Assembly: GCA_964608615.1 (NCBI GenBank)
Contig: CAZSQG010000005.1
Span: 23,651 to 87,650, forward strand
Length of the DNA stretch: 64,000 bases
Reading direction: 5' to 3'
Source: an uncultured Marinilabiliaceae bacterium
GTDB taxonomy: Bacteria > Bacteroidota > Bacteroidia > Bacteroidales > Marinilabiliaceae
Below the pieces are notes generated by a model that had not been told where the DNA came from, made no database searches, and was given only the letters and a program-made list of their open reading frames with translations. Every line of letters starts with the position of its first letter. Positions within the stretch are counted from its first letter, which is position 1. Position numbers and translations under genes: made by a program. Below, piece by piece: positions 40,660 to 61,460 of this stretch.

Positions 40660-41559
40660 ATGATGAACATTTCTGACAAACAGCTTTTAAAAGAGTTAAA
40701 AATCAAACTCGAGGAGCGGAAGAAATTTGAGGATGAAGTAAACCTACTTTCACAAGAACTTCAGGAAGTTACTCAACGCTTTAAGGAATCTGAAGCATTA
40801 AAAAGTCATTTTATTTCAAACATTTCCAATGAAATAGTAAACCCGTTTACATCTATACTAGGCCTTTCCAAATCAATTCTTGCCGTTGAAAAAAACGACT
40901 GGAAAAAAGTTGTAAGTATGGTAGCACTTATTCATAGTGAGGCCTTCAATCTCGATTTTCAGCTAAAGAACATCTTTGTTGCCGCCAAAATTGAAGCTGG
41001 AGAAGTTGTTCCCAATGTTGCCAAGGTTAATGTCAGAAACATAATCCAAACCATGATCGAATCATTTAGTCTGGTGGCTCGTAAAATGGCTATTGAAATT
41101 GATTTCAAGTTTAACATTGAATATGGTTTTGGGAAAAATTTCTATTTTAAAACCGACAGTGAAAAATTAAAGCTTATTCTGAGCAATCTCATGAATAACG
41201 CATTAAAATATAGTTATAAGGACAGCAAAGTAATTATAACAGTTTGGGTTGATGAAGATATTCTCAACTTCTCAGTACAGGATTTTGGTACAGGCATTTC
41301 TGAAAAAAATCAAAAAGTTATTTTCGAACGCTTCAAGCGACTCGATTCAGGCATTAATTCAATAAACCGCGGCCATGGGCTTGGACTCTCCATTACTAAA
41401 GCATTGCTAGATGTAATGGGAGGTTCTATTGAAATTGAAAGCAAAAAGGGTGAAGGCTCTACCTTTTATGCTAGGATACCTGAAGCCAAAAACATAATTG
41501 AAGGGTTTAGTGGAGAAGGTAATGAAACATTCTTCGATGAAGATGACGAGATTTTTTAA
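40660..41559 (+). CDS. Cytoplasmic histidine-kinase-like protein with degenerate H-box (HisKA + intact HATPase_c)
   Basis: A coiled-coil N-terminus is followed by the H-box region KSHFISNISNEIVNPFTSILG, which aligns to the consensus FlanmSHELRTPL with Asn (codon aat, 40828..40830) at the His position. The N-box LSNLMNNALKYS, G1 QDFGTGIS and G2 GHGLGLSI are intact. Confidence 0.8.
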   Translation: MMNISDKQLLKELKIKLEERKKFEDEVNLLSQELQEVTQRFKESEALKSHFISNISNEIVNPFTSILGLSKSILAVEKNDWKKVVSMVALIHSEAFNLDFQLKNIFVAAKIEAGEVVPNVAKVNVRNIIQTMIESFSLVARKMAIEIDFKFNIEYGFGKNFYFKTDSEKLKLILSNLMNNALKYSYKDSKVIITVWVDEDILNFSVQDFGTGISEKNQKVIFERFKRLDSGINSINRGHGLGLSITKALLDVMGGSIEIESKKGEGSTFYARIPEAKNIIEGFSGEGNETFFDEDDEIF

Positions 41560-43286: not shown

Positions 43287-45164
43287 ATGAAAAAAATACA
43301 GCCAAAAGCACTAATTACAAAATACACCTTCATTGGTACAACATTAGGAGTATTCATAACCCTGGTAATTTTTCTGCTAAGCATGGATTCTCCACAATAT
43401 AAATTATCCAACAGCTCTATTACAAGCTTGTTCACTATGTTTCCTGCCCTATGGGCTGCTCTGTGCCTTCCTTTCATTAGTGGAATAGCTGGTTTTTTCC
43501 TTGCAAAAAGCTTTTCGAAGATCATTAAAAAACAAACCAATAAGCTTAAAAAAGAAGCCAGTAAAACCAAAATGGTGCTTTCATTTATTGACAATCTCAG
43601 ACAAAATAAACTGGAAGAGGTTATAAAAGTAAAAGATGAAAATGATCCTCTTACTCAAGCGTTAGTCAATTTGCGAAGATTTATGATTCATAGTAAGGAA
43701 GAACAGGAAAAGCGTCGCATTGAAGAAGAACAACGAAACTGGGTTACAGAAGGATTAGCTCAATTTGGAGAAATACTACGACAAAATAACGATAACCTTG
43801 AAGAAATATCTTTAACAATAATCCGATACCTGGTAACTTATATTAAAGTCAATCAGGGCGGTGTTTTTCTTGCAAACAAGACAAAGTCGGGGGAAAAAGT
43901 TTTAGAAATGACCGCCTGTGTTGCTTATGACCGAAAAAAGTTTGCCGATAAAATTGTAAAATGGGGCGAAGGCCTACTGGGTAGATGTGCTTTAGAAAAA
44001 GAAACCATATTCATTACTGACGTACCCAACCAATATATTAATATCACTTCCGGACTTGGCGATTCTAACCCAGGAACGCTTTTGCTGGTACCATTAAAGA
44101 CTAACGAAGAAATATATGGAGTAATTGAGCTTGCTTCGTTCCAGGTTCTCCAAAGATTTGAAATTGAGTTTGTTGAAAAAACTGCCGAGAGCATTGCTTC
44201 TACAATATCAACAGTAAAAAATAATATACAAACCAATAATCTTCTGCGCGAAACACAGATACAAGCCGAAAAAATGTCCCAGCAGGAAGAAGAATTGCGT
44301 CAGAATCTTGAAGAAATGCGTGCAACACAAGAAGAAAGCGACAGACGGGAAGTTGAACGGAAAGGTATTCTTGAAGCAATTGACCATGCAGCTATTTCAT
44401 GCGAATTCGATACATCCGGAACGCTCTTATCAATTAACGATAATTTTCTTAAAACATTTAAGTATAAACCCGAAGAGGTTGAAGGTCAAAACCTGAAAAT
44501 ATTCTTTTTTAAGGATGATGTAGGAGAGCTTGACCGGATTCTTGCCGACCTCTCAAATGGACACAACTTTAGGGGCCGCGTACGCAGAAGAACCAAAGCC
44601 GGTGAAGAAATTTATTTACTCACAACTTATAGTCCGGTAATAGATCATAATGGGGAAATTCTTAAAATTCTGAGTCTTGAAAACGATGTAACCGAACAAG
44701 TTGAATTGGAAGAAGCCCTTAAACATTCCAAGGAAGAACTTGGACTCTTACTAGAAGACGCCAGAAATGAAGTTATGGAACAGTTTAAAGAAATTGAGTC
44801 TGTTAAAATCCGTAACGAAAAAACCCTTGAAGGAGCTCTTGATGCAATAATTACCACCAACAAAGAAGGAACTTTAGAGTTTTTTAATCTGGCTGCTGAG
44901 AAATTGTGGGGTTACGAAAGAAATGAAGTACTTGGACAAAATGTTTCAATGTTATTTTCTAAAGAAACATCTAAAACCAACGAATTCGTTTCTGCTTTTA
45001 TCTCCATTGATGGTGAGAAAATTGTAGGAGAAAGACGGGAAATTCCTATCAGGAATAAATATGGAGAAGACATTTCAGTTCTTTTCTTACTATCAGAAGC
45101 AAAAGTGGGCGATGATCACTCCTTTACGGCTTTCATCCAGAATGTAGAAGTTGAACTTTTTTAA
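43287..45164 (+). CDS. Membrane-anchored GAF + 2x PAS sensor protein without recognisable output domain
   Basis: Two N-terminal TM helices and a coiled coil precede a GAF domain (NQGGVFL...GEGLLGR...ITSGLGDSNPGTLLLVPL...YGVIELASF). An E/Q-rich coiled coil (QQEEELRQNLEEMRATQEE) follows, then two PAS-like domains. The protein ends directly after the second PAS domain. Confidence 0.8.
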   Translation: MKKIQPKALITKYTFIGTTLGVFITLVIFLLSMDSPQYKLSNSSITSLFTMFPALWAALCLPFISGIAGFFLAKSFSKIIKKQTNKLKKEASKTKMVLSFIDNLRQNKLEEVIKVKDENDPLTQALVNLRRFMIHSKEEQEKRRIEEEQRNWVTEGLAQFGEILRQNNDNLEEISLTIIRYLVTYIKVNQGGVFLANKTKSGEKVLEMTACVAYDRKKFADKIVKWGEGLLGRCALEKETIFITDVPNQYINITSGLGDSNPGTLLLVPLKTNEEIYGVIELASFQVLQRFEIEFVEKTAESIASTISTVKNNIQTNNLLRETQIQAEKMSQQEEELRQNLEEMRATQEESDRREVERKGILEAIDHAAISCEFDTSGTLLSINDNFLKTFKYKPEEVEGQNLKIFFFKDDVGELDRILADLSNGHNFRGRVRRRTKAGEEIYLLTTYSPVIDHNGEILKILSLENDVTEQVELEEALKHSKEELGLLLEDARNEVMEQFKEIESVKIRNEKTLEGALDAIITTNKEGTLEFFNLAAEKLWGYERNEVLGQNVSMLFSKETSKTNEFVSAFISIDGEKIVGERREIPIRNKYGEDISVLFLLSEAKVGDDHSFTAFIQNVEVELF

Positions 45165-45179
45165 TATAAACCCTTAAGA

Positions 45180-46025
45180 ATGCAGGAAAGCGAAGAGGAT
45201 ATTACTTTTAAAGAATATCTGCAAATACTTAAGGACTCCTCACCATACGATTTCAGTGAGTATTCAGATAATTCAATTTTTCGCCGCTTACATAAAGTTA
45301 TGCGCGATTATCATATTAGTCTTAATGAGCTCGTTAAAAAAACGAAAACTGACAGAGATTTTGTTGAAGAAATAGTTGAAGCTATAACGGTTAACACTAC
45401 CGAGCTCTTTCGCGATCCATCGGTTTGGATGTTTATTCTTGAAAAGCTGCTCCCTCCTTTAGCAAATAAACCAAACATCAACATCTGGCATGCCGGATGT
45501 TCTTCGGGCCAGGAAGTTTATTCCAACCTCATTTTGCTTGACCATCTTGGACTTTTAGAACACTCCAATATATATGCAACCGACATCAGCCAGAAAGTTC
45601 TTGATCAGGCTAAAAAGGGTGTTTACAAATACCGTTTCAACCTGAATTACATCGAGAACTTCAACCAGGTACTCAACCTCAAAAATAAAGAAGATTTTTC
45701 CAAGTATTTTGATATAAATGAATCGGAAGATAAAATCGTTGTTAAGGATTTTTTAAGAAAGATACCTAAGTTTATAAAACACGATCTGGTTCAGGAAAAA
45801 ATGCCGTTTTATAATAAATTTGACATCATCTTTTGCCGTAATGTTTTGATTTATTTCAACACAGGACTTCAATCAAGAATTATACAACGGTTTTATGATA
45901 ACCTTTTCCCCGGTGGATCGTTGGTTTTGGGAACACATGAAGCCATAACAGGTTTTTTCAAAACTAAATTTATTAAGACCGGATTAATTTATTCAAAAAG
46001 CAACGTGTTTCATTTTAAATCTTAA
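45180..46025 (+). CDS. CheR-type methyltransferase (second, orphan copy)
   Basis: TELFRDPSVW, the SAM motif IWHAGCSSGQEVYS and DIIFCRNVLIYFN are present. Confidence 0.85.
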   Translation: MQESEEDITFKEYLQILKDSSPYDFSEYSDNSIFRRLHKVMRDYHISLNELVKKTKTDRDFVEEIVEAITVNTTELFRDPSVWMFILEKLLPPLANKPNINIWHAGCSSGQEVYSNLILLDHLGLLEHSNIYATDISQKVLDQAKKGVYKYRFNLNYIENFNQVLNLKNKEDFSKYFDINESEDKIVVKDFLRKIPKFIKHDLVQEKMPFYNKFDIIFCRNVLIYFNTGLQSRIIQRFYDNLFPGGSLVLGTHEAITGFFKTKFIKTGLIYSKSNVFHFKS

Positions 46026-46033
46026 GAAAAACC

Positions 46034-46858
46034 GTGAACTTTAGTATAAATGAAATAAAGGAAATTACGCTCTCTATGTTAACATACCCTAACATGGACT
46101 ATACTAATTATTCCATTTCGTTTTTAAAGCGAAAATTCTCTTCAGTTTTCGCTAAACTTAATATTAAAAGAAAAGAACAACTTTATGAAAGGTTAAAAAA
46201 GAAGGACTTCAGGGATCAACTCATTACCCAAATGCTTGTGGAAAACACAGAAATGTTTCGCGATCCTGCCTTTTGGAGACTTCTTAGAGATAAAGTAATT
46301 CCCTTATTGCCTGACAACTCAACTGTATGGTTACCAAACGAAAGCAGTGGCGAAGAAGCATATTCAGTTTCGGTTTTGCTAAATGAAAAAAAAGTTGCTT
46401 CTAAAATTAAAATTATTTGCAATAATCCATCTTTAGAGATGTGCAACTCCATTAACCAAGGCCATTTAAACGGGAAACATTTTGACATAAATCTTACCAA
46501 CTACCGTCGTCTGGAAGAAAACGACTTTTTCGATGAGTATTTTTCACTCGAAAACAATGATCTGGTTGTTTGTAATAAACTAAGGGGAAACGTAAATTGT
46601 AAATATGGGTTTATTTCCGACACCATTCCTACAGAAGATATATCCCTAATTCTTTTCAGAAACATAGCGATTTATTATAATAATCGACTTGCCAATACTG
46701 TTTTCAATATATTATATGAGAAACTAATTCCCGGTGGATACCTCGTTATTGGAGTTAAAGAACAATTACCCTCAGGTATAGCAGAAAAAATGATAACAGT
46801 TAATGAAACAGAAAAAATATTTAAAAAACCCTTAGCCCAAACTAATGGATATTCTTAA
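46034..46858 (+). CDS. CheR-like protein with degenerate SAM-binding motif
   Basis: The start codon is GTG. TEMFRDPAFW is retained, but the motif equivalent to WSAGCSSGEE reads WLPNESSGEE, and FCRNVLIYF reads LFRNIAIYY. Confidence 0.75.
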   Translation: MNFSINEIKEITLSMLTYPNMDYTNYSISFLKRKFSSVFAKLNIKRKEQLYERLKKKDFRDQLITQMLVENTEMFRDPAFWRLLRDKVIPLLPDNSTVWLPNESSGEEAYSVSVLLNEKKVASKIKIICNNPSLEMCNSINQGHLNGKHFDINLTNYRRLEENDFFDEYFSLENNDLVVCNKLRGNVNCKYGFISDTIPTEDISLILFRNIAIYYNNRLANTVFNILYEKLIPGGYLVIGVKEQLPSGIAEKMITVNETEKIFKKPLAQTNGYS

Positions 46859-47429
46859 AATTGACCGATGTTTTAAACTCATTGTTATGGGGGGTTCTGC
46901 AGGTAGTTTTTCTGTGGTTTCAAAAATACTGTCTCAAATTAAGCCTGATTTTAATATCCCCATAATCCTGTCGCTCCATCGTCTGAAACATGTGCGTTCA
47001 GGCTTGGTTGAAAGCTTAAGCTTTAAATCGGTTTTAAAGTTAATAGAGCCAAACGATAAAGAAAAAATCCGCCCTAATATGGCGTATCTCGCTCCTTCTA
47101 ACTACCATCTTTTCATAGAATATGACGGTCATTTTTCATTATCTACCGAAGAATCTCTCAACCATAGCAGGCCTTCTATTGATCACTCATTTTCATCGGC
47201 AGGCGATGCATATCGCGAAAAAACACTTGGAATTCTACTAACCGGAGCAAATAAAGATGGAGCACAGGGATTAAAAAACATATACGATCACAAGGGTTTT
47301 ACAATTGTTCAAGATCCAAAAACCTGTGATATTGAAACCATGCCACAATCGGCCCTTAAGCTTTTTAATCCCAATATGATATTATCTCCCGATCAAATTA
47401 TTCTTTTCCTTAACAACCTGCCACAATGA
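46845..47429 (+). CDS. CheB-type methylesterase domain protein lacking a receiver domain
   Basis: 194 aa with MGGSAGS (Ser nucleophile context), SLHRLKH and LTGANKDGAQG, which parallel the CheB esterase motifs. It overlaps the preceding gene by 14 nt. Confidence 0.8.
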   Translation: MDILKIDRCFKLIVMGGSAGSFSVVSKILSQIKPDFNIPIILSLHRLKHVRSGLVESLSFKSVLKLIEPNDKEKIRPNMAYLAPSNYHLFIEYDGHFSLSTEESLNHSRPSIDHSFSSAGDAYREKTLGILLTGANKDGAQGLKNIYDHKGFTIVQDPKTCDIETMPQSALKLFNPNMILSPDQIILFLNNLPQ

Positions 47430-48199
47430 ATATTCAAAAAAAAATTAACAAACCGTTTACATACTGGTTTTTTCTGTTGGCAGGAATCGTATTCCTGCTT
47501 ACAATAACCCGACACTTTCTTTTTGAGTCAAAGGCAGAGCCAATGTTCTATTATTTTGAGATAATTTCATTTATAGTATTTATGGTAATGCTTTTACTAA
47601 CAGAGAAACAATGTGCTAGTTTTCAGGAGCAAATCAGGCTACTTAATGAAACATATAAAAATGACAAAACTGAATGGCAAAATAAAATCCTTGATTTACA
47701 AAACAACCTTTCAGTTTTTGAAAAAGAAGAGAAAGAGGTACAAGGCATGTTAATTAAACAGGAAACTATTATAAAACAGGTTTTTGATAACAAAAGCAAT
47801 AAAAAGGGAAACACAAGTTTTCTTTATTTATTTTCGGAAGCAACTCATGCCTCGGCAGCAATTCTTTACAAAGAAACAAAACCCTCGGGTGGTTTTATCG
47901 TACAAGATTCTTACGGATTACCAGAAGATTTTTCACCGCAATCATTTGAACGTGGAGAAGGACTTTGTGGCCAAACGGTAATAGATGGAGTTCCTCTGTT
48001 AATTGAAGATATTCCTGACGATTACTTTATGATGTTATCAGGGCTTGGAAAAGCTAAACCAAAATTTATCTATTTCCTGCCGGTAATGGATAATAATAAT
48101 TGCATAGCTTTAATAGAATTAGCTACCTTTAAAAAAAACGACCTGGAAAAAATGTGGCAGGGCATTTCAACCAAAATAATTGATAAAGGAATTTTATAA
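47426..48199 (+). CDS. Membrane-anchored GAF-domain protein
   Basis: Two TM helices and a coiled coil precede a GAF-like domain (GEGLCGQ...MLSGLGKAKPKFIYFLPV...CIALIELATF). It overlaps the CheB-like gene by 4 nt. Confidence 0.7.
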   Translation: MNIQKKINKPFTYWFFLLAGIVFLLTITRHFLFESKAEPMFYYFEIISFIVFMVMLLLTEKQCASFQEQIRLLNETYKNDKTEWQNKILDLQNNLSVFEKEEKEVQGMLIKQETIIKQVFDNKSNKKGNTSFLYLFSEATHASAAILYKETKPSGGFIVQDSYGLPEDFSPQSFERGEGLCGQTVIDGVPLLIEDIPDDYFMMLSGLGKAKPKFIYFLPVMDNNNCIALIELATFKKNDLEKMWQGISTKIIDKGIL

Positions 48200-48208
48200 A
48201 AAAACTAA

Positions 48209-50827
48209 ATGTCGTTTAAACCTGAAAATATAAGTATAAAAGATTTGAGAAGAGCTATCTCCCTTAAGGAGATCTCGTATTCAAAGAAGTTTATTCTATA
48301 TACTTCTTTCATACTTCTTTTTATTCTTTCTTGGTCAGGCTTTTTAGCTCTGGAAAAAACCAATTTTTCACTACTGAGTATTATAGCTCTTCACAAAAAT
48401 GCTCTGGTTTGGTTTACCGACTTTCTTATTTTTGGAGTTGCTTTTTCGGGTATTGTTTACTTTAACCTTTTAAAATCCAAAACCGAAAAACTAAAAAACA
48501 AAGTTTATGAACTTAACGAAAGAATACAGGTTAACATTGAACTTGCAAATAATCTTAAATATGCAAATTGGGAAAAACTCCAAGCCAATGGAGACATCTT
48601 ATCCCAAACATTATTAGAACTTGGACTTAACATTAGAGACAGTAAAAAAAGAGAAGAAGAACAAAACTGGATTACAAACGGGAAAGATCTGATTTCAGAT
48701 TTGCTTAGAAATTCTCATAACCTGGAGGATCTATCCGTTTCAGTTATTAAAGCTCTAATCAACTATATGGGTGGCATACAAGGTGCTTTTTACCTAAATC
48801 AAGGGAGCGTACTTAAAAGAAGTGCTATGTATGCCTATGGGCGTCGACGCTTTGAATACAATGAAATACCAATTGGTAAGGGCCTTATTGGTGCCTCCGC
48901 TTATGAAAAAGCCATAATTTTTCGGTCCGAAATTCCCGAAGATTACTTTATTGTAACCTCAGGTCTTATAGGAGAGCAAAAACCTAAAAGCATATTACTG
49001 ATTCCTTTACTTCAGGAAGAGGATTTACAAGGTGTTTTGGAAATAGCCTTTCTGGAAACTCGTCTTCCAAAATATAAAAACATTTTTGCCGAGGAGGTAG
49101 GTTCAATAATTGGACAAACAATTTACAACCTAAAAATTACCACCCGTACCGAAATGTTGCTTAAGGAATCGCAGGAAATGACCACCATTCTTAGGGAAAA
49201 CGAAGAAAAACTGCGCCAAAACGCAAGAGAAATGATTGTTGGTCAGGAAGAACTCGAACGTAGCAACCAGATGCTTGAATCACAAATACAGGAGGTTGCA
49301 AACTCCCAAAAGAAACTTGAAGCATTGCTTACCAACGCCTCTGAATTCATCTCAATTTATGACGAAAACCAAATCCTTGTTTTTGAAAGTCCTTCAGTTA
49401 AGAGAATTCTGGGTTATTCTGATTCAGACATCATAAATGGCATGGATCCCGAAATATTAACTCCCAGAGGTTTAAAAACAATAAATCGATTATTCCAATT
49501 CCTACTTGATACCCCAGGAGGTGAACAAATTGCACAATACACTTATTTAAGGAAAAATGGGGAGAAGCTTTTTCTGGAGACTAAAGGAAAAAACTTACTT
49601 CACGATCAGGCAATCAGAGGTATAATTTTTAATACTCAGGATATAACCGAACGAAAACGTGCCGAAAAAGAGGAACGTATGAAAAGCCGGATGCAAAGCT
49701 TATCGGAAAATTCTCCTGATATGATCATCCGAATTAACTTATTGGGAAAGCTTGTTTATGTAAACCCTGCTGTTTCAAGATTCATTGACATTCCAGCGTC
49801 TGAACTTGTTAAGAAACGAATACCCGATTTAATGATCGATCCTCGTTTTATTGAATTCATGCAGGAAACATTAGCTTCCGTACGAGATCAACAACAACAA
49901 ATTATTTCGGAGGTTGCTGTAAGCTCAAATGATGGCGAACGAATTATGGAGATTAAAGTAATCCCTGAATTAGGTGAAGAGGGCGAACTTGAAACCATAC
50001 TGTTCGTAGCTCATGATATGACTGATTTCAAAAAAATAGAACAGGAAATAAAGGAAAAAAATAAAAAGATTTCAGACAGTATTAACTATGCACAAAGGAT
50101 TCAAACATCCATTTTACCCAATACTGGGTTACTACAAGAATACTTTCCACGTTCATTTATCTTTTATCGTCCCAAAGATATAGTAAGTGGTGATTTCCCG
50201 TGGTTTTTCAGAAAAGATAATATATACTATGTTGCTGCAGTTGACTGCACAGGCCATGGTGTTCCGGGGGCTTTAATCAGTTTTATCGGACATTTCCTTT
50301 TAAACAACATTGTAAGCGTTGATAATAACTCAACTGCTGCCCAGATTATGGATAATCTCCATCTTGAGGTTAGAAGTACTTTAAAACAAGATCAGGAAGG
50401 AGCTACAGGGCGCGACGGAATGGATCTTGCATTATGCAAGATCGATCCCGATAATAAAATTCTTGAATTTGCCGGAGCTCATCGTCCTTTATATTATCTT
50501 CGAAAGGGAGAATTAACAGAATATCAAGGTACACGAAAAGGAATTGGAGGAATACCATTAGCAAAAAAAACTGAAAAAGATTTTGAAAATCATGTTATCC
50601 ACTATCAAAGTGGTGATCAAATATTTATTTTTAGTGATGGATTACCTGATCAGCTGGGAGGACCGGAACGTAAAAAATACCAGTCACGTCGTATTCGTGA
50701 AGCATTAACTGAAAAACAGAATGTTTCAATGGCTCATTTTTCGCGCCATTTTTCAATGGATTTTTACGACTGGCTGGGAGAAGAAAAACAAGTTGACGAT
50801 GTCCTTTTGATAGGAATTGAATTGTAA
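48209..50827 (+). CDS. Membrane GAF + 2x PAS + PP2C (SpoIIE/RsbU/SiaA-type) protein phosphatase
   Basis: TM helices precede a GAF domain (GIQGAFYL...GKGLIGA...VTSGLIGEQKPKSILLIPL...QGVLEIAFL). A coiled coil and two PAS domains follow. The C-terminal PP2C motifs are SGDFPWF, AVDCTGHGVPGA and FSDGLPDQ. Confidence 0.9.
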   Translation: MSFKPENISIKDLRRAISLKEISYSKKFILYTSFILLFILSWSGFLALEKTNFSLLSIIALHKNALVWFTDFLIFGVAFSGIVYFNLLKSKTEKLKNKVYELNERIQVNIELANNLKYANWEKLQANGDILSQTLLELGLNIRDSKKREEEQNWITNGKDLISDLLRNSHNLEDLSVSVIKALINYMGGIQGAFYLNQGSVLKRSAMYAYGRRRFEYNEIPIGKGLIGASAYEKAIIFRSEIPEDYFIVTSGLIGEQKPKSILLIPLLQEEDLQGVLEIAFLETRLPKYKNIFAEEVGSIIGQTIYNLKITTRTEMLLKESQEMTTILRENEEKLRQNAREMIVGQEELERSNQMLESQIQEVANSQKKLEALLTNASEFISIYDENQILVFESPSVKRILGYSDSDIINGMDPEILTPRGLKTINRLFQFLLDTPGGEQIAQYTYLRKNGEKLFLETKGKNLLHDQAIRGIIFNTQDITERKRAEKEERMKSRMQSLSENSPDMIIRINLLGKLVYVNPAVSRFIDIPASELVKKRIPDLMIDPRFIEFMQETLASVRDQQQQIISEVAVSSNDGERIMEIKVIPELGEEGELETILFVAHDMTDFKKIEQEIKEKNKKISDSINYAQRIQTSILPNTGLLQEYFPRSFIFYRPKDIVSGDFPWFFRKDNIYYVAAVDCTGHGVPGALISFIGHFLLNNIVSVDNNSTAAQIMDNLHLEVRSTLKQDQEGATGRDGMDLALCKIDPDNKILEFAGAHRPLYYLRKGELTEYQGTRKGIGGIPLAKKTEKDFENHVIHYQSGDQIFIFSDGLPDQLGGPERKKYQSRRIREALTEKQNVSMAHFSRHFSMDFYDWLGEEKQVDDVLLIGIEL

Positions 50828-50867
50828 CTATATTTACATAATTTTGGACAATTTTGAAATAAACACG

Positions 50868-51434
50868 ATGGAAAAGGAAAACCAAGGGTTTCTGGAGTTT
50901 GCTTATCAGCTCTATAAAACAATGAAAACCAATGAAATTAATTTGGTTTACGAAGGCGAGGTCACACAGGAAATAACCAAAACCTTTACCACTCTTACCG
51001 AAAAGAGTCTTTCGAAAAATGCCGAATCAAATACCGTTCAAAAAAAAGTATTCAATGTAATGGTTGAGTGTTTACAAAACATTAGTAAACACGCTGATTC
51101 TTTGAATGATGAAGATGAAGAACGTAGGGGAATTGTAATGGTTAGCAAGGGCGAGGATAGCTATAACATCATTACCGGCAACGTTATTAAAAACGAAAAA
51201 GTTCCAGAATTGAAAAAGAGCCTGGAGCTTATTAACAGTCTGGACAAAGAAGGCCTTTCCACATTGTTTAAACAACAAATTAGGGAAACAACCATTTCAG
51301 ATAAAGGTGGTGCCGGACTTGGACTAATTGACATTGCAAAAAAAACCGGGAGCAAGCTATCCTATCAGTTCAAAGAGCTAAACCAGAGTGTCTCTTTTTT
51401 CATTTTGACTTCTACCATTAAAAGAAACGGATAA
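50868..51434 (+). CDS. SiaB-like GHKL-type protein kinase (partner-switch kinase)
   Basis: About 188 aa from the ATG at 50868 (MEKENQGF), whereas the ORF-track start is upstream. An anti-sigma-kinase-like fold is suggested by ECLQNISKH and the ATP-lid GGAGLGLIDIAKKTG. It sits between a PP2C gene and a DUF1987 gene, as siaB does. Confidence 0.7.
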   Translation: MEKENQGFLEFAYQLYKTMKTNEINLVYEGEVTQEITKTFTTLTEKSLSKNAESNTVQKKVFNVMVECLQNISKHADSLNDEDEERRGIVMVSKGEDSYNIITGNVIKNEKVPELKKSLELINSLDKEGLSTLFKQQIRETTISDKGGAGLGLIDIAKKTGSKLSYQFKELNQSVSFFILTSTIKRNG

Positions 51435-51445
51435 AATAAGCAACC

Positions 51446-51826
51446 ATGAACATCATAAATATTAAAGGTACAGATGATACCCCAAACGTTATCCTTGATA
51501 AGGATAAGCAATTATTCGAAATATCAGGAAGGTCTCTTCCCGAAGATGTAAATATGTTTTATGAACAAATTCTGGATTGGATTGATAGTTACTCCGAAGA
51601 TCCAAATGATAGGACAGAGTTCAATTTTAAACTGGAATATTTTAATACCGCCTCCTCAAAAGTTATTCTCGATATTCTTCTTAAATTTGAAGAAATATTG
51701 GAAAAAGGAAAAGATGTGGTAATTAAATGGCATTACCATGAAGACGAAGAAGACATGCTCGAAGCAGGTGAAGAATATGCCGACATTGTTGAAATTCCTT
51801 TCGATTACGTGGTATACAACGACTAG
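51446..51826 (+). CDS. SiaC-like DUF1987 protein (phospho-Thr switch protein)
   Basis: 126 aa showing the DUF1987 pattern: G..DTP.V.LD......EISGRS.PED...FY..IL.W...Y, followed by LEYFNTASSK. The Thr of the FNT motif is residue 68 (codon acc, 51647..51649). Confidence 0.75.
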   Translation: MNIINIKGTDDTPNVILDKDKQLFEISGRSLPEDVNMFYEQILDWIDSYSEDPNDRTEFNFKLEYFNTASSKVILDILLKFEEILEKGKDVVIKWHYHEDEEDMLEAGEEYADIVEIPFDYVVYND

Positions 51827-51851
51827 ACCTGACAGACTTTTCCTTTAAAAA

Positions 51852-54800
51852 ATGAGTGAAGAAATTCTAAAAGCATTAATGCAGTTGTTTGGTTTACTAA
51901 CCAAACAAGATGGAGGTGTTGGATCCAACGAGACAGAATATGTGCGTACGTTTCTTAAGCAACAACTAAATAAAGAAGCTGTTGAAGAATATTTTTCGCT
52001 CTTTTTAACTTACACAACCGAAGAAAATAAAACCAAACCGGGCGATGAAGAAGGTAAGATTCAACTTACCTCCATGAAAGACTCAGTTAGAATTCTGGGT
52101 ATATGCAAAAAAATAAATAAACAGCTTAACAGGGAACAAAAAGTTGTTGTGTTAGTGCGATTATATGAGCTTGTCAGCATGGATATGAAGCTGACCGATC
52201 AACGCATGGCCATCATCAACACTGTTGCCGATGTTTTCAAATTACCTAAGAACGAGATATCTGCAATTGAGGCATTTGTTCTTCAAAATGATATCACAAA
52301 ATTGAACTTCCCTGACATACTGATAGCCAATGACACGGAGATTCAGGATGTACAGTTTAAACATATTAATACAACCGGTCTTCATGGATCAGTTCTGGTT
52401 TTAAATGTAAAAAGTGCCGAACTGTATTTTATGCGTTACAACGGCGACCAGGATGTTTTTTTGAATGGCTTGGTTATCAGTAATAAAAGAATTTATCTGT
52501 TTCCTAATGGGAGCTTTATTAGAATACCTATTGGAAAACCAATATATTATACTGATGTTGTTAGTCGGTTTATGGCCGATTCTGATTCACCAAAAATCAC
52601 TTACGAAGTTAAAAACGTTCATTTTCGTTTTAAAAGTGGAGCAGTAGGTCTGCGCAACATCAATATAGCAGAAGAACAAGGCCGCCTCATTGGAATAATG
52701 GGTGCCTCAGGTGCAGGAAAAACCACCTTGCTCAACGTTCTCTCTGGCATTGAAAAACCAACTGAAGGAGAAGTTCTTATCAATAACTATAATCTCCATG
52801 CCGATAAAGAAGATCTCAACGGAGTTATTGGTTTAATTCCACAAGATGACTTGCTTATTGAAGAACTCACCGTTTTTGAAAATCTTTATTATAACGCAAA
52901 ACTCTGTTTCAGAGATAAAGGGGAAGAAGAATTAATCGGCATGGTTAATGAAACCCTTCAAAATCTTGGCCTTTTTGAAAGACGACATTTAAAAGTTGGA
53001 TCACCTCTTAACAAGATGATTAGTGGAGGCCAGCGTAAAAGATTAAACATAGCACTGGAATTAATTCGTCAGCCATCAGTTTTATTTGTTGATGAGCCAA
53101 CCTCCGGTCTTTCTTCACGCGATTCTGAAAACGTGATGAACCTGCTTAGAGAACTAACACTAAAGGGAAAACTGATCTTTGTGGTTATCCACCAACCATC
53201 TTCCGACATCTATAAGATGTTTGATAAAATGTTTATCCTTGATACTGGCGGCTATCCTGTTTATTATGGAAATCCGGGTGAATCGCTTATTTACTTTAAA
53301 CAACTTGACGCACAAATAAATAGCGATCAGGGTGAATGCCCAACTTGTGGTAATCTGAACCCCGAACAAATATTCAATATCATTGATGCCAATGTTATTG
53401 ATGAATATGGAAATTATACAAACAAAAGAAAAGTAGAAGCAGAAGATTGGTATAAACTCTTTGAAAAAACGCATTCGCTACCCTCTGTTAAAACCGTTGA
53501 AACCTCTCCCCCAAAGAGTTTGAACATCCCATCATGGTTCAATCAGTTTAAAATTTACACCTTACGCGATTTTTTCGCCAAAATTAGTAACACCCAATAT
53601 ATTGCCCTTAACTTATTAGAAGCACCATTTTTGGGTTTTATTCTTGCCTATTTGATCCGTTATATTGCTGATCCAACATCGAATTTTTACATTTTCAGAG
53701 AAAACGAAAACATACCACCTTACATATTTATGGGCATAGTGGTGGCTCTGTTCTTTGGTTTAATAATTAGTGCCGAAGAAATATTTAAAGATTCCAAAAT
53801 ACTGAAAAGAGAGTCATTTCTAAATCTTAGCCGTTCAAGCTATCTGAGTTCCAAGATTCTCCTGCTTTTCACTATTTCAGCCATTCAAATGTTCCTTTTT
53901 GTTTTCGTAGCAAATACAATTCTTGGTATTAAGGACATGTATTTTGAATTCTGGCTCGCATTATTCTCCATTTCAGCTTTTGCCAATATTCTCGGATTAA
54001 TATTATCAGCATCATTTAACAGTATTGTTACCATATATATTCTTATTCCATTGGTAATGATTCCTCAAATGGTATTGGGTGGAGCTATGTTTACATTCGA
54101 TAAACTAAACAAGGACTTTACCAGTGTCGACAAAGTGCCAGCAGTTGCTGAATTCATGCCTTCGCGATACATTTATGAAGGATTGATTGTACATCAGTAC
54201 AAGCACAATAATTTCAAAAAGAATTACTTTGACATCGAGCTTCAGGAAAGTAAAAGCGACTTTAAACAAGTACATTACCTTCCAGAATTACACGATATTT
54301 TAAATGAGTGTTCTTTACATATAATTGATGGCAAACCCACATCAGACAAGACATTTGTCAACGATCTGGAATTAATAAGGAATGAGATTTCGAAAGAATT
54401 AATAAGAGTTCCCGAATTGCAATTTAGTTTAATTGATAAAATCACACCTGAAGAATTTAATTCAGATATTGCCCAAAATATTGACAACTACCTAAACAAC
54501 TTGCTTGTATATTACCGAGGTGTTTTTACTAAAGCAAATAGTTCAAAGGACCGCTTTATAAGTATCAACATCAACCAAGATGCCACACGTTTTAACCGCA
54601 TTAAAGATGAGTACTATAATGAAAGTATTTCATCAATTGTTCGCAAAGAATTTGAGAAAAATAAAATTCTGAGACAAGACAACCATTTAGTACAAATGGC
54701 TGACCCTATTTATCAGATTCCCGAACCTTCAGGTTTCTGGTCGTTTCGTACCCATTTCTTTGCTCCGGTTAAACATTTAGGTGGAAATTTCTTTGAAACA

Positions 54801-54920
54801 TTATGGTTCAATATATTCATGGTATGGATTTTGACTATATCGTTATATATTGTTTTGCATTTTGACCTATTGAAAAAGGGATTAAACCTTATAGAATCAA
54901 TAAAATGGCGAAAAAAGTAA
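51852..54920 (+). CDS. ABCG-type (ABC-2) ATP-binding/permease fusion with ~270-aa N-terminal extension (TerB-like + FHA-like)
   Basis: Walker A is GIMGASGAGKTT, the signature is ISGGQRKRL and Walker B is VLFVDEPTSGL. A C-terminal multi-TM ABC-2 domain is present. The N-terminus (ILKALMQLFGLLTKQDGGVGSNETEYVRTFL) looks TerB-like. Residues around 175-240 (...YNGDQDVFLNGLVISNKRIYLFPNGSFIRI) look like a degenerate FHA domain. Confidence 0.85.
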   Translation: MSEEILKALMQLFGLLTKQDGGVGSNETEYVRTFLKQQLNKEAVEEYFSLFLTYTTEENKTKPGDEEGKIQLTSMKDSVRILGICKKINKQLNREQKVVVLVRLYELVSMDMKLTDQRMAIINTVADVFKLPKNEISAIEAFVLQNDITKLNFPDILIANDTEIQDVQFKHINTTGLHGSVLVLNVKSAELYFMRYNGDQDVFLNGLVISNKRIYLFPNGSFIRIPIGKPIYYTDVVSRFMADSDSPKITYEVKNVHFRFKSGAVGLRNINIAEEQGRLIGIMGASGAGKTTLLNVLSGIEKPTEGEVLINNYNLHADKEDLNGVIGLIPQDDLLIEELTVFENLYYNAKLCFRDKGEEELIGMVNETLQNLGLFERRHLKVGSPLNKMISGGQRKRLNIALELIRQPSVLFVDEPTSGLSSRDSENVMNLLRELTLKGKLIFVVIHQPSSDIYKMFDKMFILDTGGYPVYYGNPGESLIYFKQLDAQINSDQGECPTCGNLNPEQIFNIIDANVIDEYGNYTNKRKVEAEDWYKLFEKTHSLPSVKTVETSPPKSLNIPSWFNQFKIYTLRDFFAKISNTQYIALNLLEAPFLGFILAYLIRYIADPTSNFYIFRENENIPPYIFMGIVVALFFGLIISAEEIFKDSKILKRESFLNLSRSSYLSSKILLLFTISAIQMFLFVFVANTILGIKDMYFEFWLALFSISAFANILGLILSASFNSIVTIYILIPLVMIPQMVLGGAMFTFDKLNKDFTSVDKVPAVAEFMPSRYIYEGLIVHQYKHNNFKKNYFDIELQESKSDFKQVHYLPELHDILNECSLHIIDGKPTSDKTFVNDLELIRNEISKELIRVPELQFSLIDKITPEEFNSDIAQNIDNYLNNLLVYYRGVFTKANSSKDRFISININQDATRFNRIKDEYYNESISSIVRKEFEKNKILRQDNHLVQMADPIYQIPEPSGFWSFRTHFFAPVKHLGGNFFETLWFNIFMVWILTISLYIVLHFDLLKKGLNLIESIKWRKK

Positions 54921-54979
54921 CCTTTTATTTTTCATAATAGTATAAGAGAGAACATTAGAAAACACTTAAACTTTTTGTC

Positions 54980-55897
54980 ATGTTAAAAAAACTATCTTAC
55001 CTATTGCTAATACTAGCCGCAACTCAGTTATTTAACGGCTGTTCGGGCTGCTCAGATAAAAAGTCTAAAGGCAGTGATTCACTTGCATTACCTGATTCGG
55101 TTATCAGCGATACACCATTAAAGCTTTCAGAAGACATTATGAATGAGGTTATTCAAAATATCTCATCGCCCGTTGAGATGGCTAATCTAATAAAATCTTC
55201 TGGTGCTGAATTTTCACAGCGAATCCTTAATAATACTGACAATGTTTCACGATATGAAACTTCATATAAAAGAGCTTTAAACCTAGGTGTATTTAGTGCC
55301 GATCTTGGATACATCAATATTTTCGATAAGAATAACGTTGTTGTTTCATACCTTTTGTCGGTAAAAAATCTTGCCGATGGTATTCGTGTTGGCCAATTCT
55401 TTGATTTCAATGCTCTGCGGCGTATGGCATCCAATTCAACTAACCTTGATTCTTTAATGGATATGTCAGTATCAAGTTTTAATAAGATGGATGCCTATTT
55501 ACGCGATCAAAACCGCAGTAATGTGAGTACTCTTATTGTTACCGGTACCTGGATTGAAGGTTTGTATATCGCTTCAAGCGTTGTAAAAGAAACCAAAAGT
55601 AAAGAATTATCTATTCGCATAGCCGAACAAAAAAATATTATTGATATACTTGAAATAATTCTCAGCAATTATATTAGTGAACCTAATTTTGCAACCCTGG
55701 TTGATGATATTCGTGAGCTTAAGAATGCTTATTCTGATATTAGGATTACAACAGAATTGGGAGAGCCAAAAAGAATTGAAAAAGATGGTATGCTTATTGT
55801 AATTCAGGATGAAATAAGCACAGTACATTATACCGATGAGCAGCTAGCTATGATTATGGATTTGATCGGAAAAATCCGCAATAAAATTGTTGAATAG
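54980..55897 (+). CDS. Lipoprotein of unknown function
   Basis: The lipobox is LFNGC. The remaining ~280 aa appear mostly helical. I recognise no motif. Confidence 0.6.
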   Translation: MLKKLSYLLLILAATQLFNGCSGCSDKKSKGSDSLALPDSVISDTPLKLSEDIMNEVIQNISSPVEMANLIKSSGAEFSQRILNNTDNVSRYETSYKRALNLGVFSADLGYINIFDKNNVVVSYLLSVKNLADGIRVGQFFDFNALRRMASNSTNLDSLMDMSVSSFNKMDAYLRDQNRSNVSTLIVTGTWIEGLYIASSVVKETKSKELSIRIAEQKNIIDILEIILSNYISEPNFATLVDDIRELKNAYSDIRITTELGEPKRIEKDGMLIVIQDEISTVHYTDEQLAMIMDLIGKIRNKIVE

Positions 55898-55951
55898 TTA
55901 TAATTGTTTTAACATCAAAACAATTACAAAAGGAAATATAAACCAATTACT

Positions 55952-56407
55952 ATGAAAAAAATATTGTTAGGCTTAATATTAGTTCTTTCAATAAATTCTT
56001 TCAGCGTTTCGGCACAATGTGATGAATCGCTTAAAAAACAGGCACTGAAAGAGATGGGAGAAAGCCAATACATCAGAGACTTTTCTATTGACCTGAGAAA
56101 AGCAAAAAAGGATTTAAAAACGGGATTTGTGAAGTTTTCTGTTATTCTTAACAGTCGTAATGCATATAAGTTTACCGTTGTTAATAACCCCTCAAACCAA
56201 GAAGAAGTAATAATGCAGCTTTATGATGGTGACAAATTAATGATGAGTAATTTTGAAGGGGGTAAAATGTACAAGGCTACAACATTTATTTGCCGTACTA
56301 CCAAAATATACCATCTCACATTTTCGTTCAAGGGCGGAGAAGAAGGTTGTGCTGAAGCTGTTATTTCTTTAGTAAAACAATATGCTTCGGGTGAAATGGG
56401 ATTTTAG
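55952..56407 (+). CDS. Small secreted protein of unknown function
   Basis: The signal peptide is MKKILLGLILVLSINSFSVSA. The protein is 151 aa with several Cys residues in the mature part. No family is recognised. Confidence 0.55.
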   Translation: MKKILLGLILVLSINSFSVSAQCDESLKKQALKEMGESQYIRDFSIDLRKAKKDLKTGFVKFSVILNSRNAYKFTVVNNPSNQEEVIMQLYDGDKLMMSNFEGGKMYKATTFICRTTKIYHLTFSFKGGEEGCAEAVISLVKQYASGEMGF

Positions 56408-56922: not shown

Positions 56923-58040
56923 GTATTTGAAACAATAAAATCTTCGATAATTCCATCAACTTGAAACCAACTTTCTTCACGACATTTTAAATGAGATTCT
57001 TCAATATATAACAATCCCCTTTTACACCATTTATCCGCCAAGGTTAAAAAAAACTTATATAAATCCGCAAATTCAAGCCGGCATCTTTCCATGTCCACAC
57101 CCCAACAAGCTCGTAAACCCAACATTATCATTTCATTATAACGATCAACATTGCTTAATGTTTCCTCTTGATACAATAAATTGAACTGCCCCGAGAGATA
57201 ATGGTTAAGAAAAGCCTTATTCCAAAACCTCTTATTATTTACATAAGAGTGGCTTCCAGGGCCAAAACCAAGGTATGGAACTCCTTTCCAATATGATGAA
57301 TTGTGACGCGAGAAACAACCTGGTTTACTAAAATTTGAAACTTCATAATGATCCATCCCAACTTGATGTAATCCATTACAAAGCAACAAATACTGCTCCA
57401 AACTTTCGGAGTCATTTATTTCTTTCATCTGCCCCATCAACTTCTTTTTATGAAAAGCAGTACCTTTTTCAATTGAAAGATGATAAGCTGATATATGTTG
57501 CACCGGCAGGTTTTTAAAAAAATCAAGATTTTGAAGAAAAGAATCTCGGTTACTCCAGGGTAAGCCATAAATAAAATCCACGCCAATGTTATTGAAACCA
57601 GCCTTAACGGCTCCCTGTATTACCCTAAACCCCTGATTGGCATTATGCCGTCTGCCCATTTTCACTAAGTCAACATCGTTAAAACTTTGAATCCCTATGC
57701 TTAAACGGTTAAAGCCAATATTAATAATTTCATCAAGATAAGATGGATTTAAATCATCAGGATTGCATTCAATAGTTATTTCAGAATCATTGGAAACATT
57801 ATAATGTTTATAAAACAAATCTAAAACTACTTTTAATAATTTAGCACTTAACAACGATGGAGTACCTCCTCCAAAATAAATAGTATTTACTTCAAATGGG
57901 AAATTATGAGAATTAGAGGCGATTTCCTTACTCAAACTATCTACAAACGCAGGAATAGCCTTAAGGTTTGTTGATTTAAAAAAATCACAATAGCCGCATC
58001 TGGAAAAACAAAAAGGAATATGAACATAAAGTCCCGCCAT
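56919..58040 (-). CDS. hemW: Radical SAM heme chaperone HemW (HemN-like, oxygen-independent coproporphyrinogen oxidase family)
   Basis: LYVHIPFCFSRCGYCDF (CxxxCxxC), GGGTPS and the HemN C-terminal domain are present. Confidence 0.85.
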   Translation of the reverse strand: MAGLYVHIPFCFSRCGYCDFFKSTNLKAIPAFVDSLSKEIASNSHNFPFEVNTIYFGGGTPSLLSAKLLKVVLDLFYKHYNVSNDSEITIECNPDDLNPSYLDEIINIGFNRLSIGIQSFNDVDLVKMGRRHNANQGFRVIQGAVKAGFNNIGVDFIYGLPWSNRDSFLQNLDFFKNLPVQHISAYHLSIEKGTAFHKKKLMGQMKEINDSESLEQYLLLCNGLHQVGMDHYEVSNFSKPGCFSRHNSSYWKGVPYLGFGPGSHSYVNNKRFWNKAFLNHYLSGQFNLLYQEETLSNVDRYNEMIMLGLRACWGVDMERCRLEFADLYKFFLTLADKWCKRGLLYIEESHLKCREESWFQVDGIIEDFIVSNT

Positions 58041-58235
58041 AATAAAATTGTTTCACGTGAAACATTAAAAAACAGTGTGTTATATGGGTTTATTAACAAG
58101 TTTTAAACATATATAAACAGGTTTATTAACAATTTAGCCATAAAAATAAGTGTTCTTTGTAAAGGTAACCACTAAATAATTTGGTTTTTACAATAGTACC
58201 AAACATTTGAAAAAACCGTATTTTGCAAAAAAAAA

Positions 58236-58604
58236 ATGATAATAAAACAATACCGAATAACAATATTAAGTTTTATTCTTATTCTCTATTTAAGCTTTAT
58301 GAATGAAGGAGCCATCCCGCATAGTAAAATTTTCCTATTTAGAAGATCCGATCTAGTTATTCACTTTTTAATGTATTCCTTTTTATCGTATATTTTCTTT
58401 TTAGAGAGATATAGAAAAATTAAAACCACATTGTTTCCATGGCTTTATATATCGTTATTTACTATCCTTGGTGCCACTATTGAAATATTACAGCCCGCTT
58501 TAGCCAACAGAAGCTGTGAAATATTTGATTTTATGGCCAATTTCTCAGGTGTTTTGTGGGGTTACTTCTCTTTTGGTCTTACACGTAATTATTTAAAGAG
58601 ATAA
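58236..58604 (+). CDS. VanZ family membrane protein
   Basis: 122 aa with 4 TM helices and the pattern D...H...Y......E..Q........D..AN..G typical of VanZ-like proteins. Confidence 0.65.
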   Translation: MIIKQYRITILSFILILYLSFMNEGAIPHSKIFLFRRSDLVIHFLMYSFLSYIFFLERYRKIKTTLFPWLYISLFTILGATIEILQPALANRSCEIFDFMANFSGVLWGYFSFGLTRNYLKR

Positions 58605-58776
58605 AATAACTTTTTATACTTTTCGTAGTTAAAACTATTGTTTCAATTTTAAAGCAATGCTCCTCCTCTACTTGAAATATTTTATCAAATAGTATTAAGA
58701 TGACTTAAATCGAAAGTCACTTTTTAGTAATCTGTAATAAATTCTTTATTATTTTAATTCATTAAAATATAATAAA

Positions 58777-59217
58777 CTAAAGTAGTCTGATTTTGTTTAT
58801 TCGTGATTCATGTCTTCCTCCATCAAAAGATGTTTCCAAAAACAAATCAACTATTTTCTTTGCCTCCTCCACTGACACAAATCGCGCAGGTAACGAACAA
58901 ACATTGGCATTATTATGAGCCCTTGCAAGCCTTGAAATTTCACTAATCCAACAAAGAGCAGCTCTAATACCCTGATGCTTATTAACGGTCATATTTATAC
59001 CATTTCCACTACCGCAAATAGTAAAACCTATTTCACATTCGCCTTTTTCAACCGAAAAAGCCAATGGATGGGCATAATCAGCATAATCAACACTATCTGT
59101 TGAATCAGTACCAAAATCAATTACTTCAATATTCTTGACCTTAAGATACTCTTTTAGAATAACTTTCAAATCATATCCTGCATGGTCGCAACCAATTGCT
59201 ACTTTTTTAAACAACAT
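58777..59217 (-). CDS. rpiB: Ribose-5-phosphate isomerase B
   Basis: IGCDHAGYDLK, the active-site region CGSGNGI and the 146-aa length fit the family. Confidence 0.9.
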   Translation of the reverse strand: MLFKKVAIGCDHAGYDLKVILKEYLKVKNIEVIDFGTDSTDSVDYADYAHPLAFSVEKGECEIGFTICGSGNGINMTVNKHQGIRAALCWISEISRLARAHNNANVCSLPARFVSVEEAKKIVDLFLETSFDGGRHESRINKIRLL

Positions 59218-61446: not shown

Positions 61447-61460
61447 TGCCTTATAATTGA

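Follow-up and report, generated by a model that had tools for sequence, protein, structure and literature searches.

The SiaABC phospho-switch is so far known only as the regulator of one Pseudomonas diguanylate cyclase, and the occurrence of SiaABC-like genes in other genetic surroundings raises the question of what the switch would control there. Such genes are present in a contig of an uncultured Marinilabiliaceae bacterium (Bacteroidota; GenBank assembly GCA_964608615.1, contig CAZSQG010000005.1), of which a stretch of 64,000 nt was analyzed (hereafter the window; all feature coordinates are given in window numbering). The module of interest (48209–51826) contains three open reading frames (ORFs) transcribed in the same direction and separated by spacers of 40 and 11 bp. 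An earlier note on this DNA had proposed that the trio mirrors siaA-siaB-siaC, that it conserves the phosphorylatable Thr68 of SiaC, that no GGDEF protein is encoded in the window and that the switch acts on a different target. The analyses described below agree with these proposals, as far as sequence can test them, and point to an ATP-binding cassette (ABC) exporter operon located directly downstream as the probable output. The locus is a variant of the SiaABC partner switch with different input domains and a putative, previously undescribed output, conserved across several Bacteroidota orders.

The Three Genes Code for Relatives of SiaA, SiaB and SiaC

The first gene codes for a phosphatase for which transmembrane (TM), GAF and two PAS input domains had been described. 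This architecture was found in Pfam searches and in the hydrophobicity of the protein: two hydrophobic segments at the N-terminus are followed by a GAF_2 domain at amino acids (aa) 170–284 (26.5 bits, slightly below the cutoff of 28.6), a PAS domain at aa 494–606 preceded by a second, weaker one at aa 392–466, and a SpoIIE/PP2C domain at aa 673–871 (E = 3e-18). The C-terminal 260 aa matched the crystal structure of SiaA-PP2C (6K4E) with E = 2.5e-33, and the motifs SGDF, VDCTGHGVPGAL, SDGLPDQ and VDDV were retained between both proteins. The strictly conserved active-site Asp and Gly residues listed for SiaA-PP2C (PMC7647112) are contained in these retained motifs. The metal-binding Asp and Gly residues of PP2C enzymes are conserved, including VDCTGHG, in keeping with a SiaA phosphatase domain.

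The second gene starts at the ATG at 50868, according to independent gene calls on identical contigs, and not at the TTG at 50817 of the ORF list. Its product (188 aa) scored 172.5 bits against the NCBIfam family SiaB_fam_kinase (NF038262; cutoff 85) and 146 bits against Pfam DUF6272, and it matched SiaB (6KKO_A) with E = 9e-16, conserving the N-box ECLQN and the G-box GGAGLGL. The product of the third gene (126 aa) is a SiaC-family (DUF1987) protein, with 141 bits against Pfam SiaC (PF09345; cutoff 24.5) over profile positions 1–119 of 120, and it could be aligned without gaps to P. aeruginosa SiaC (6KKO_C/6K4F; E = 6e-17). It is 79–94% identical to proteins of other Marinilabiliaceae (Carboxylicivirga, Plebeiibacterium, Labilibacter, Marinilabilia, and Alkaliflexus). 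Its residue 68 is a Thr (codon ACC) within the motif LEYFNTASSK and, in a MAFFT alignment, corresponds exactly to T68 of the P. aeruginosa protein, the experimentally proven phosphosite of SiaC at the N-terminal end of helix alpha2 (PMC7647112, PMC8457831). Thr occupies this position in 134 of 134 transporter-linked orthologues (see below), in which the motif YFNTASSK is invariant, and Thr or Ser is found there in all of 29 diverse members of the wider family.

None of the three proteins reached the cutoff of the corresponding NCBIfam equivalog: 165 bits for the phosphatase against NF038263 (cutoff 700), over model positions 394–654 only, 87.9 bits for the kinase against NF038264 (cutoff 225), and 85.6 bits for the SiaC-family protein against NF038265 (cutoff 150). 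Because of this, the three are, judged from their sequences, relatives and not orthologues of SiaA, SiaB and SiaC. Their homology nevertheless makes it very probable that the trio would work as a phospho-switch.

The SiaC family is large, with 4637 representative clusters at E ≤ 1e-3. Its multi-domain members are mainly SiaB-SiaC fusions, others carrying HEAT repeats, zinc ribbons or a cytidylate-kinase-like domain, and no GGDEF fusion was found among them. Many tandem two-domain SiaC proteins of approximately 250–270 aa also occur in the wider family. Other SiaC paralogues of Bacteroidota adjoin genes for pyridoxal phosphate (PLP)-decarboxylases, HD hydrolases or radical-SAM enzymes, and these neighbors fit the suggestion that DUF1987 proteins regulate or modulate adjacent proteins (PMC8457831). 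This general idea has thus already been put forward; an exporter as the proposed target is new. In the literature searched, by accession or by name, DUF1987 and related families appeared only in the Pseudomonas SiaC papers.

The Switch Genes Are Linked to an Exporter Operon Across Bacteroidota

When GTDB species, each represented by a single genome, were scanned with the SiaC alignment, at least 563 matches were obtained for this subfamily, and the best 80 of them (57–92% identical) were examined as genome loci, which span Marinilabiliales, other Bacteroidales, Salinivirgaceae, Cytophagales and Flavobacteriales. Neighboring ORFs were classed by phmmer against the window proteins. In 75 of 78 genome loci the gene directly downstream of siaC codes for a TerB-ABC transporter (median gap of 34 bp), followed by genes for a lipoprotein, P305 (65/68), and for a small protein, P151 (61/64). 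On the other side, siaC is directly preceded by a siaB gene in 74 of 76 loci, and a SiaA-like phosphatase gene precedes siaB-siaC in 62 of 72. Farther upstream, a receiver-less CheB gene was found in 53 of 67 loci and a cheR gene in 51 of 63, the latter including loci without CheA, CheW or methyl-accepting chemotaxis protein (MCP) genes nearby, and a complete Che cluster (with CheD and CheB-REC as markers) was linked in 18 of 61.

The arrangement is maintained in distant genomes and with different flanks. Fulvivirga maritima, which belongs to a different class, has the array GAF-PAS/CheR/CheB-methylesterase/GAF/PP2C/SiaB/SiaC/TerB-ABC/P305/P151 beside a dCMP deaminase gene, and no CheA, CheW or MCP gene was found beside this array. 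Seven Carboxylicivirga-type loci (from five named Carboxylicivirga genomes and two metagenome-assembled genomes, MAGs) contain SiaB-SiaC-ABC-P305-P151 alone, and the flanks differ between the two that were inspected in detail (loci L019 and L026). The PP2C gene is located downstream of the five-gene block in a Vicingaceae MAG and downstream in L080, and L105 shows a divergent orientation; the linkage of siaC with the transporter gene is kept in both L080 and L105. Gene linkage thus points to SiaB-SiaC-ABC-P305-P151 as the invariant unit, and to the phosphatase, the two CheR, the receiver-less CheB and the paralogous 2TM-GAF proteins as a frequent but separable input layer.

The linkage was also found in the reciprocal direction. 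Of 80 metagenome loci chosen through the N-terminal 245 residues of the transporter (37–74% identity), 73 were informative, and in 56 of these the transporter gene was directly preceded by siaC, counting L111, in which the two genes overlap by 4 bp. The loci lacking siaC harbor mostly the most divergent transporters. Seven of these (L156, L160, L162, L164, L165, L167, and L168), with 37–39% identity at the N-terminus, form a divergent exporter clade without siaB or siaC: in L156, L162, L165, L167 and L168 a P305 homologue is encoded upstream of the ABC gene, and in L160 and L164 the ABC gene is followed by a response-regulator/histidine-kinase pair. The same exporter thus seems to be combined with alternative regulators in the divergent clade. 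With P305 ahead of the ABC gene or a two-component system behind it in these loci, the exporter-P305-P151 unit looks ancestral and SiaB-SiaC a regulatory addition.

Several loci show further peculiarities. Tandem siaC-siaC genes stand ahead of the transporter gene in L080 (9998–10789), tandem siaB-siaB genes occur in L127 and L151, and the genomes of L068 and L086 contain second, unlinked sets of siaA, siaB and siaC. Carboxylicivirga linearis (L019) has a small TerB-like ORF ahead of siaB, which was considered and dropped, being conserved in no other locus.

No Diguanylate Cyclase Was Detected in the Window or in Related Loci

A switch of this type could still be a true SiaABCD system if a SiaD-type cyclase were encoded elsewhere in the genome. 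The pentapeptide [GASR][GAS][DE]EF was absent from all six frames of the window. A GGDEF consensus probe was checked on PDB, where SiaD was its best match (7E6G, E = 8e-42) and PleD and WspR came next. With this probe nothing was found at E ≤ 10 in the window or in 168 related loci of approximately 2 Mb, among them the 80 genome loci (1.43 Mb) and the 80 metagenome loci. These searches covered 64 kb of the source genome together with locus flanks of 10 kb (genome loci) and 6 kb (metagenome loci), a scope that leaves room for a distant cyclase gene. Of the three SiaC residues that are required for binding of SiaD, the SiaC-family protein conserves two, N67 and T68, but in the window-type orthologues invariant Ala and Ser stand in place of S69 and I71, with which P. 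aeruginosa SiaC contacts SiaD. According to a census by Galperin (PMC1183210), diguanylate cyclases were missing from the Bacteroidetes genomes of that time, and our literature search on Marinilabiliales and diguanylate cyclases gave nothing relevant beyond the Pseudomonas papers. Because of the strong two-way linkage to the exporter genes and of the reported absence of cyclases from early Bacteroidetes genomes, a cyclase elsewhere in the source genome is unlikely, and we consider a complete SiaABCD system with a distant SiaD highly improbable.

An Rfam scan of the window matched no family, c-di-GMP (cyclic di-GMP) riboswitches included. A YfiR/HmsC-like (DUF4154) periplasmic protein is encoded at 32812–33330, directly upstream of the MCP gene at the head of the Che cluster. 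YfiR acts in Pseudomonas as a repressor of the diguanylate cyclase YfiN. The DUF4154 protein represents another c-di-GMP-associated family in a different context, with no cyclase present here.

The Candidate Target Is a Predicted ABCG-Type Exporter with a TerB/FHA-Like Module

The transporter shows Pfam matches to ABC_tran (aa 267–418), ABC2_membrane (aa 565–782) and TerB, and its TM segments fall within aa 584–743. Its closest solved relatives by sequence are Pdr5/CDR1, ABCG1, ABCG2 and ABCG5. It is accordingly predicted to be an ABCG-type (ABC-2, type V) exporter, in which a nucleotide-binding domain (NBD) precedes the ABC-2 domain in one polypeptide. Past the ABC-2 domain the protein continues for approximately 230 aa (aa ~790–1022; 54220–54920), an extension ending in a predicted TM segment at aa 980–998.

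The N-terminal region (aa 1–260) was modeled with AlphaFold2 (AF2; pLDDT 87, pTM 0.83) as a TerB-like domain of seven helices and, behind it, a beta-sandwich (aa ~156–232), in which pLDDT exceeded 90. In a Foldseek search of PDB, the top 35 matches were almost all FHA domains, among them those of Rad53 (FHA1), MEK1, CEP170, EssC and Bdellovibrio DgcB, with probabilities of 0.99–1.0 and target-normalised TM-scores of 0.4–0.56 but E-values of 0.03–0.3. A profile of this domain alone gave the FHA domain of MEK1 as its best match in PDB (E = 0.064), and Pfam FHA (PF00498) was not matched in the transporter up to E = 10. As to the canonical GR/SxxH/N phospho-Thr pocket, no conserved GR was found, and the canonical Asn falls on the variable Q200; invariant residues of the domain are S188, F193, Y196, G198, N205, G206, G220 and D235. 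A canonical FHA reading of phosphorylated Thr68 was rejected on these grounds (absence of a Pfam FHA match and of conserved pocket residues), and only the designation FHA-like fold was kept. The invariant residues that the domain has of its own nevertheless leave some room for a reading of phosphorylated Thr68 by it. The beta-sandwich is thus a predicted FHA-like fold whose phosphate pocket is degenerate. A comparison of SiaBC-linked with unlinked transporters found no specificity positions.

The two genes that follow code for proteins that matched nothing in Pfam even at E ≤ 10. P305 carries a lipobox-like Cys in 57 of 65 orthologues, and its AF2 model (pLDDT 72.5) had no meaningful Foldseek match in PDB (best E = 0.3, to designed helical repeats). 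Orthologues of P151 have signal-peptide-like N-termini.

Proposed Control of the Exporter and Alternative Targets

By homology, the SiaB-family kinase would phosphorylate the SiaC-family protein at Thr68, and the membrane-anchored GAF-PAS-PAS-PP2C protein would strip this phosphate upon cytoplasmic or membrane signals. Gene linkage suggests that the phosphorylation state of the SiaC-family protein would control the exporter encoded directly downstream instead of a cyclase, probably in that SiaC, alone or paired with SiaB, binds directly to the N-terminal regulatory module of the exporter or to its NBD. The exporter itself, also by linkage, may be a half-transporter working with P305, as a periplasmic or outer-membrane lipoprotein, and with the secreted P151. 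The exporter is the most likely target because it is almost always encoded beside the switch genes and because it carries a dedicated cytoplasmic regulatory module, composed of TerB and the FHA-like fold. A precedent is Rv1747, an ABC exporter with FHA domains that is encoded together with the Ser/Thr kinase PknF and is under its positive control (PMC3138270). On balance, we regard it as probable, though by no means assured, that a SiaABC-type partner switch has been re-wired from a diguanylate cyclase to the TerB/FHA-like/ABC exporter operon, homology arguing for the switch and gene linkage for its target.

Several observations weigh against this interpretation. The target is assigned from gene neighborhood, the loci are orthologous, so that their conservation is partly inherited synteny, and about a quarter of the transporter loci lack SiaBC. 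Transporters from such loci keep the same N-terminal invariant residues, and no SiaC-specific interface is identifiable. The FHA-like domain lacks a Pfam FHA match, its Foldseek E-values are no better than those given above and its phospho-Thr pocket is not conserved, which leaves an FHA reading of phospho-Thr unsupported. A few SiaC paralogues neighbor unrelated genes, as described above. Finally, with all three proteins below the equivalog cutoffs, their biochemistry may differ from that of Pseudomonas.

The same target could also be reached by a more classical logic, in which the SiaB-like kinase binds and inhibits, or phosphorylates, the N-terminal module of the transporter, and unphosphorylated SiaC only sequesters SiaB. 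Canonical partner switches act through their kinase/anti-sigma component, and SiaABC has been described in these terms (PMC7647112); the linkage of siaB (adjacent in 74/76 loci) is as tight as that of siaC, SiaB-SiaC fusions and the tandem siaB copies of two loci would be compatible with a role of SiaB as effector, and Rv1747 is phosphorylated by the kinase of its own operon, PknF (PMC3138270). Against it, in the sole characterized system it is SiaC that binds the effector (PMC8457831), and no conserved Thr-rich linker was identified in the transporter, its one disordered loop (aa 60–71) being variable. We therefore consider SiaB as the effector rather unlikely.

A further alternative is that the switch acts on an unlinked target, which could be the Che-like pathway, some other enzyme or a regulator such as a sigma or transcription factor, and that the exporter operon is co-transcribed or regulated downstream. 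Partner switches often control sigma factors (PMC7647112), and in the window the module ends a 23-kb co-directional Che array; the unrelated neighbors of SiaC paralogues and the N-terminal domain retained by SiaBC-less transporters would also be accounted for. However, the conserved block contains no sigma factor or DNA-binding gene, and the full Che cluster, linked in only the 18 of 61 loci mentioned above, is absent from the Fulvivirga, Salinivirgaceae and Carboxylicivirga loci. The tight two-way gene order, with its short intergenic gap, also stands against it: gene order conserved this tightly is typical of physically interacting products. An unlinked target thus appears unlikely, and regulation of the adjacent exporter by the SiaC-family protein remains the interpretation that we prefer.

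Input Genes Upstream of the Switch

The earlier note had stressed the location of the phosphatase gene downstream of a Che pathway. This holds for the window, in which the array upstream of the module includes CheA, CheW and MCP genes, but it is a lineage-specific trait: the complete Che cluster is specific to Marinilabiliaceae, and CheA, CheW and MCP are not part of the conserved module. What is conserved are the orphan CheR and CheB-methylesterase genes and the paralogous GAF partners. Two CheR and the receiver-less CheB are encoded beside GAF/PP2C genes without nearby CheA, CheW or MCP in Fulvivirga (L007) and Salinivirgaceae (L045–L057). The gene for the 257-aa 2TM-GAF protein is conserved directly upstream of the phosphatase gene, CheR2 keeps its position in most Bacteroidia loci, and the 625-aa GAF-PAS gene is present in many, not all, orthologous loci. 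Within the Che cluster of the window, a 299-aa HATPase_c protein without Pfam HisKA or Hpt match is encoded between CheR and CheD (40660–41559), and a stand-alone Hpt protein beside CheY and CheA (36346–36678).

The SiaA-like phosphatase, the 625-aa GAF-PAS protein and the 257-aa GAF protein each have two N-terminal TM segments. The SiaA-like and the 625-aa proteins share 32% identity over 320 aa (E = 1e-37), including the coiled coil that follows the GAF domain, and the N-terminal half of the 625-aa sensor is a paralogue of the SiaA-like protein. This coiled coil (49140–49320, aa ~312–370 of the SiaA-like protein; 44270–44350, aa ~328–355 of the GAF-PAS protein) is strongly conserved in 58 orthologues as NEEQLRQNAEEM.ATQEELE.SN, and the paralogue of this segment in the window reads QQEEELRQNLEEMRATQEE. 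We take the Glu-Glu pairs followed by Ala-Thr in NEEQLRQNAEEM.ATQEELE to be a half-match to the MCP methylation-site consensus. Aligned to the canonical CheB that is also encoded in the window, its receiver-less counterpart retains Ser (GGSAGS), His (LHRL) and Asp (LTGANKDG), the residues of the CheB catalytic triad. The post-GAF coiled coil, encoded beside orphan CheR and CheB genes, may thus be a methylation substrate. Extending this idea, the array of approximately 13 kb (43287–56407) could be an undescribed chemosensory-like pathway without CheA, CheW or MCP, in which CheR and the receiver-less CheB would reversibly methylate the coiled-coil Glu pairs of GAF sensors, the PP2C protein included, and so adapt the SiaB/SiaC Thr68 switch that gates the ABC exporter via its TerB/FHA-like module; we regard this pathway as doubtful.

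Organization of the Locus

The features of the locus are collected in Table 1. Promoter and terminator scans of the window gave counts equal to those of shuffled controls, the sigma-70 consensus used being inappropriate for Bacteroidota. At the end of the window, the nadA-ruvB region (58001–64000) differs in composition, with a G+C content of 26–32% versus approximately 35–36% elsewhere and a strongly positive GC skew (+0.24 to +0.33).

Table 1. Features of the switch and exporter locus, in window coordinates.
Feature	Position	Strand	Length and evidence
2TM-GAF-PAS-PAS sensor without output domain	43287–45164	+	625 aa; Pfam GAF and PAS; two TM segments
CheR1, orphan CheR methyltransferase	45180–46025	+	Pfam CheR, 138 bits
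CheR2, second, divergent CheR-like methyltransferase	46034–46858	+	Pfam CheR, 75.5 bits; no CheR_N domain detected
CheB methylesterase domain alone, receiver-less	46845–47429	+	Pfam CheB_methylest, 149 bits; no Response_reg
Small 2TM-GAF protein	47426–48199	+	257 aa; Pfam GAF_2, 28.8 bits; two TM segments
SiaA-like membrane-anchored phosphatase (2TM, GAF, coiled coil, two PAS, PP2C)	48209–50827	+	872 aa; PP2C at ~50225–50821
SiaB-family GHKL Ser/Thr kinase	50868–51434	+	188 aa; NF038262, DUF6272
SiaC-family (DUF1987) phosphoprotein	51446–51826	+	126 aa; predicted phosphosite Thr68, codon 51647–51649
Candidate target, predicted ABCG-type half-transporter (TerB, FHA-like, NBD, ABC-2 TM domain)	51852–54920	+	1022 aa; 25 bp after the SiaC gene
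TerB-like helical domain of the transporter	51852–52286	+	N-terminal
FHA-like beta-sandwich of the transporter	about 52299–52571	+	AF2 model
P305, conserved lipoprotein	54980–55897	+	305 aa; lipobox-like Cys in orthologues; no Pfam match
P151, conserved small secreted protein	55952–56407	+	151 aa; signal peptide, then conserved Cys; no Pfam match

Comparison with Known Systems

The closest known system is SiaABCD of P. aeruginosa (PA0169–PA0172), which shares with the window the gene order PP2C phosphatase, small GHKL kinase and DUF1987 protein, the homology of the three products to 6K4E, 6KKO_A and 6KKO_C, the residues T68 and N67, and the logic of a partner switch. Both systems differ in their outputs, since the window locus lacks SiaD or any GGDEF protein and has the TerB/FHA-like/ABC exporter after SiaC instead. 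They also differ in their inputs: a 2TM-GAF-PAS-PAS region replaces the N-terminal region of SiaA, only the C-terminal 260 aa of both phosphatases matching each other, and the module of the window, unlike SiaABCD, is associated with CheR, CheB-methylesterase and GAF genes. The locus thus presents a candidate output other than a cyclase that can be put to the test, in a phylum for which c-di-GMP signaling is reported to be scarce or absent, and it provides a regulatory context for three uncharacterized families conserved across Bacteroidota, namely the TerB/FHA-like ABC exporter, P305 and P151.

As in the adaptation systems of chemotaxis, a CheR and a CheB methylesterase are encoded beside membrane-anchored coiled-coil sensors. 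The conserved module differs from those systems in that MCP, CheA and CheW do not belong to it, the CheB is receiver-less and the sensors are GAF/PAS proteins, one of them ending in a PP2C domain. The recurrence of these CheR, CheB-methylesterase and GAF neighbors raises the possibility that adaptation by methylation is not restricted to MCPs but extends to other sensors.

Partner switches based on STAS proteins (HptB-HsbR-HsbA acting on HsbD, or RsbU/V/W) likewise combine a phosphatase of the PP2C type with a GHKL kinase and a small antagonist that can be phosphorylated, and their output is exerted by protein binding. In the window, the phosphoprotein belongs to DUF1987 and not to STAS, although SiaC is structurally STAS-related (PMC8457831, PMC7647112), and the predicted output is a transporter instead of a sigma factor or a cyclase.

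The proposed output has its closest counterpart in Rv1747/PknF of Mycobacterium tuberculosis (PMC3138270), in which an NBD-TMD (transmembrane domain) exporter similar to ABCG proteins, with N-terminal domains of FHA type, likewise shares its operon with a system for Ser/Thr phosphorylation. Rv1747 has two canonical phospho-Thr-binding FHA domains, whereas the exporter of the window combines a single predicted FHA-like fold, without the pocket residues, with a TerB domain. In the mycobacterial system a Hanks-type kinase phosphorylates the transporter itself, while the window codes for a GHKL-type kinase and a separate phosphoprotein, SiaC. If the SiaC-family protein does control the exporter, the locus would extend the control of ABC exporters by reversible Ser/Thr phosphorylation beyond mycobacterial Rv1747.

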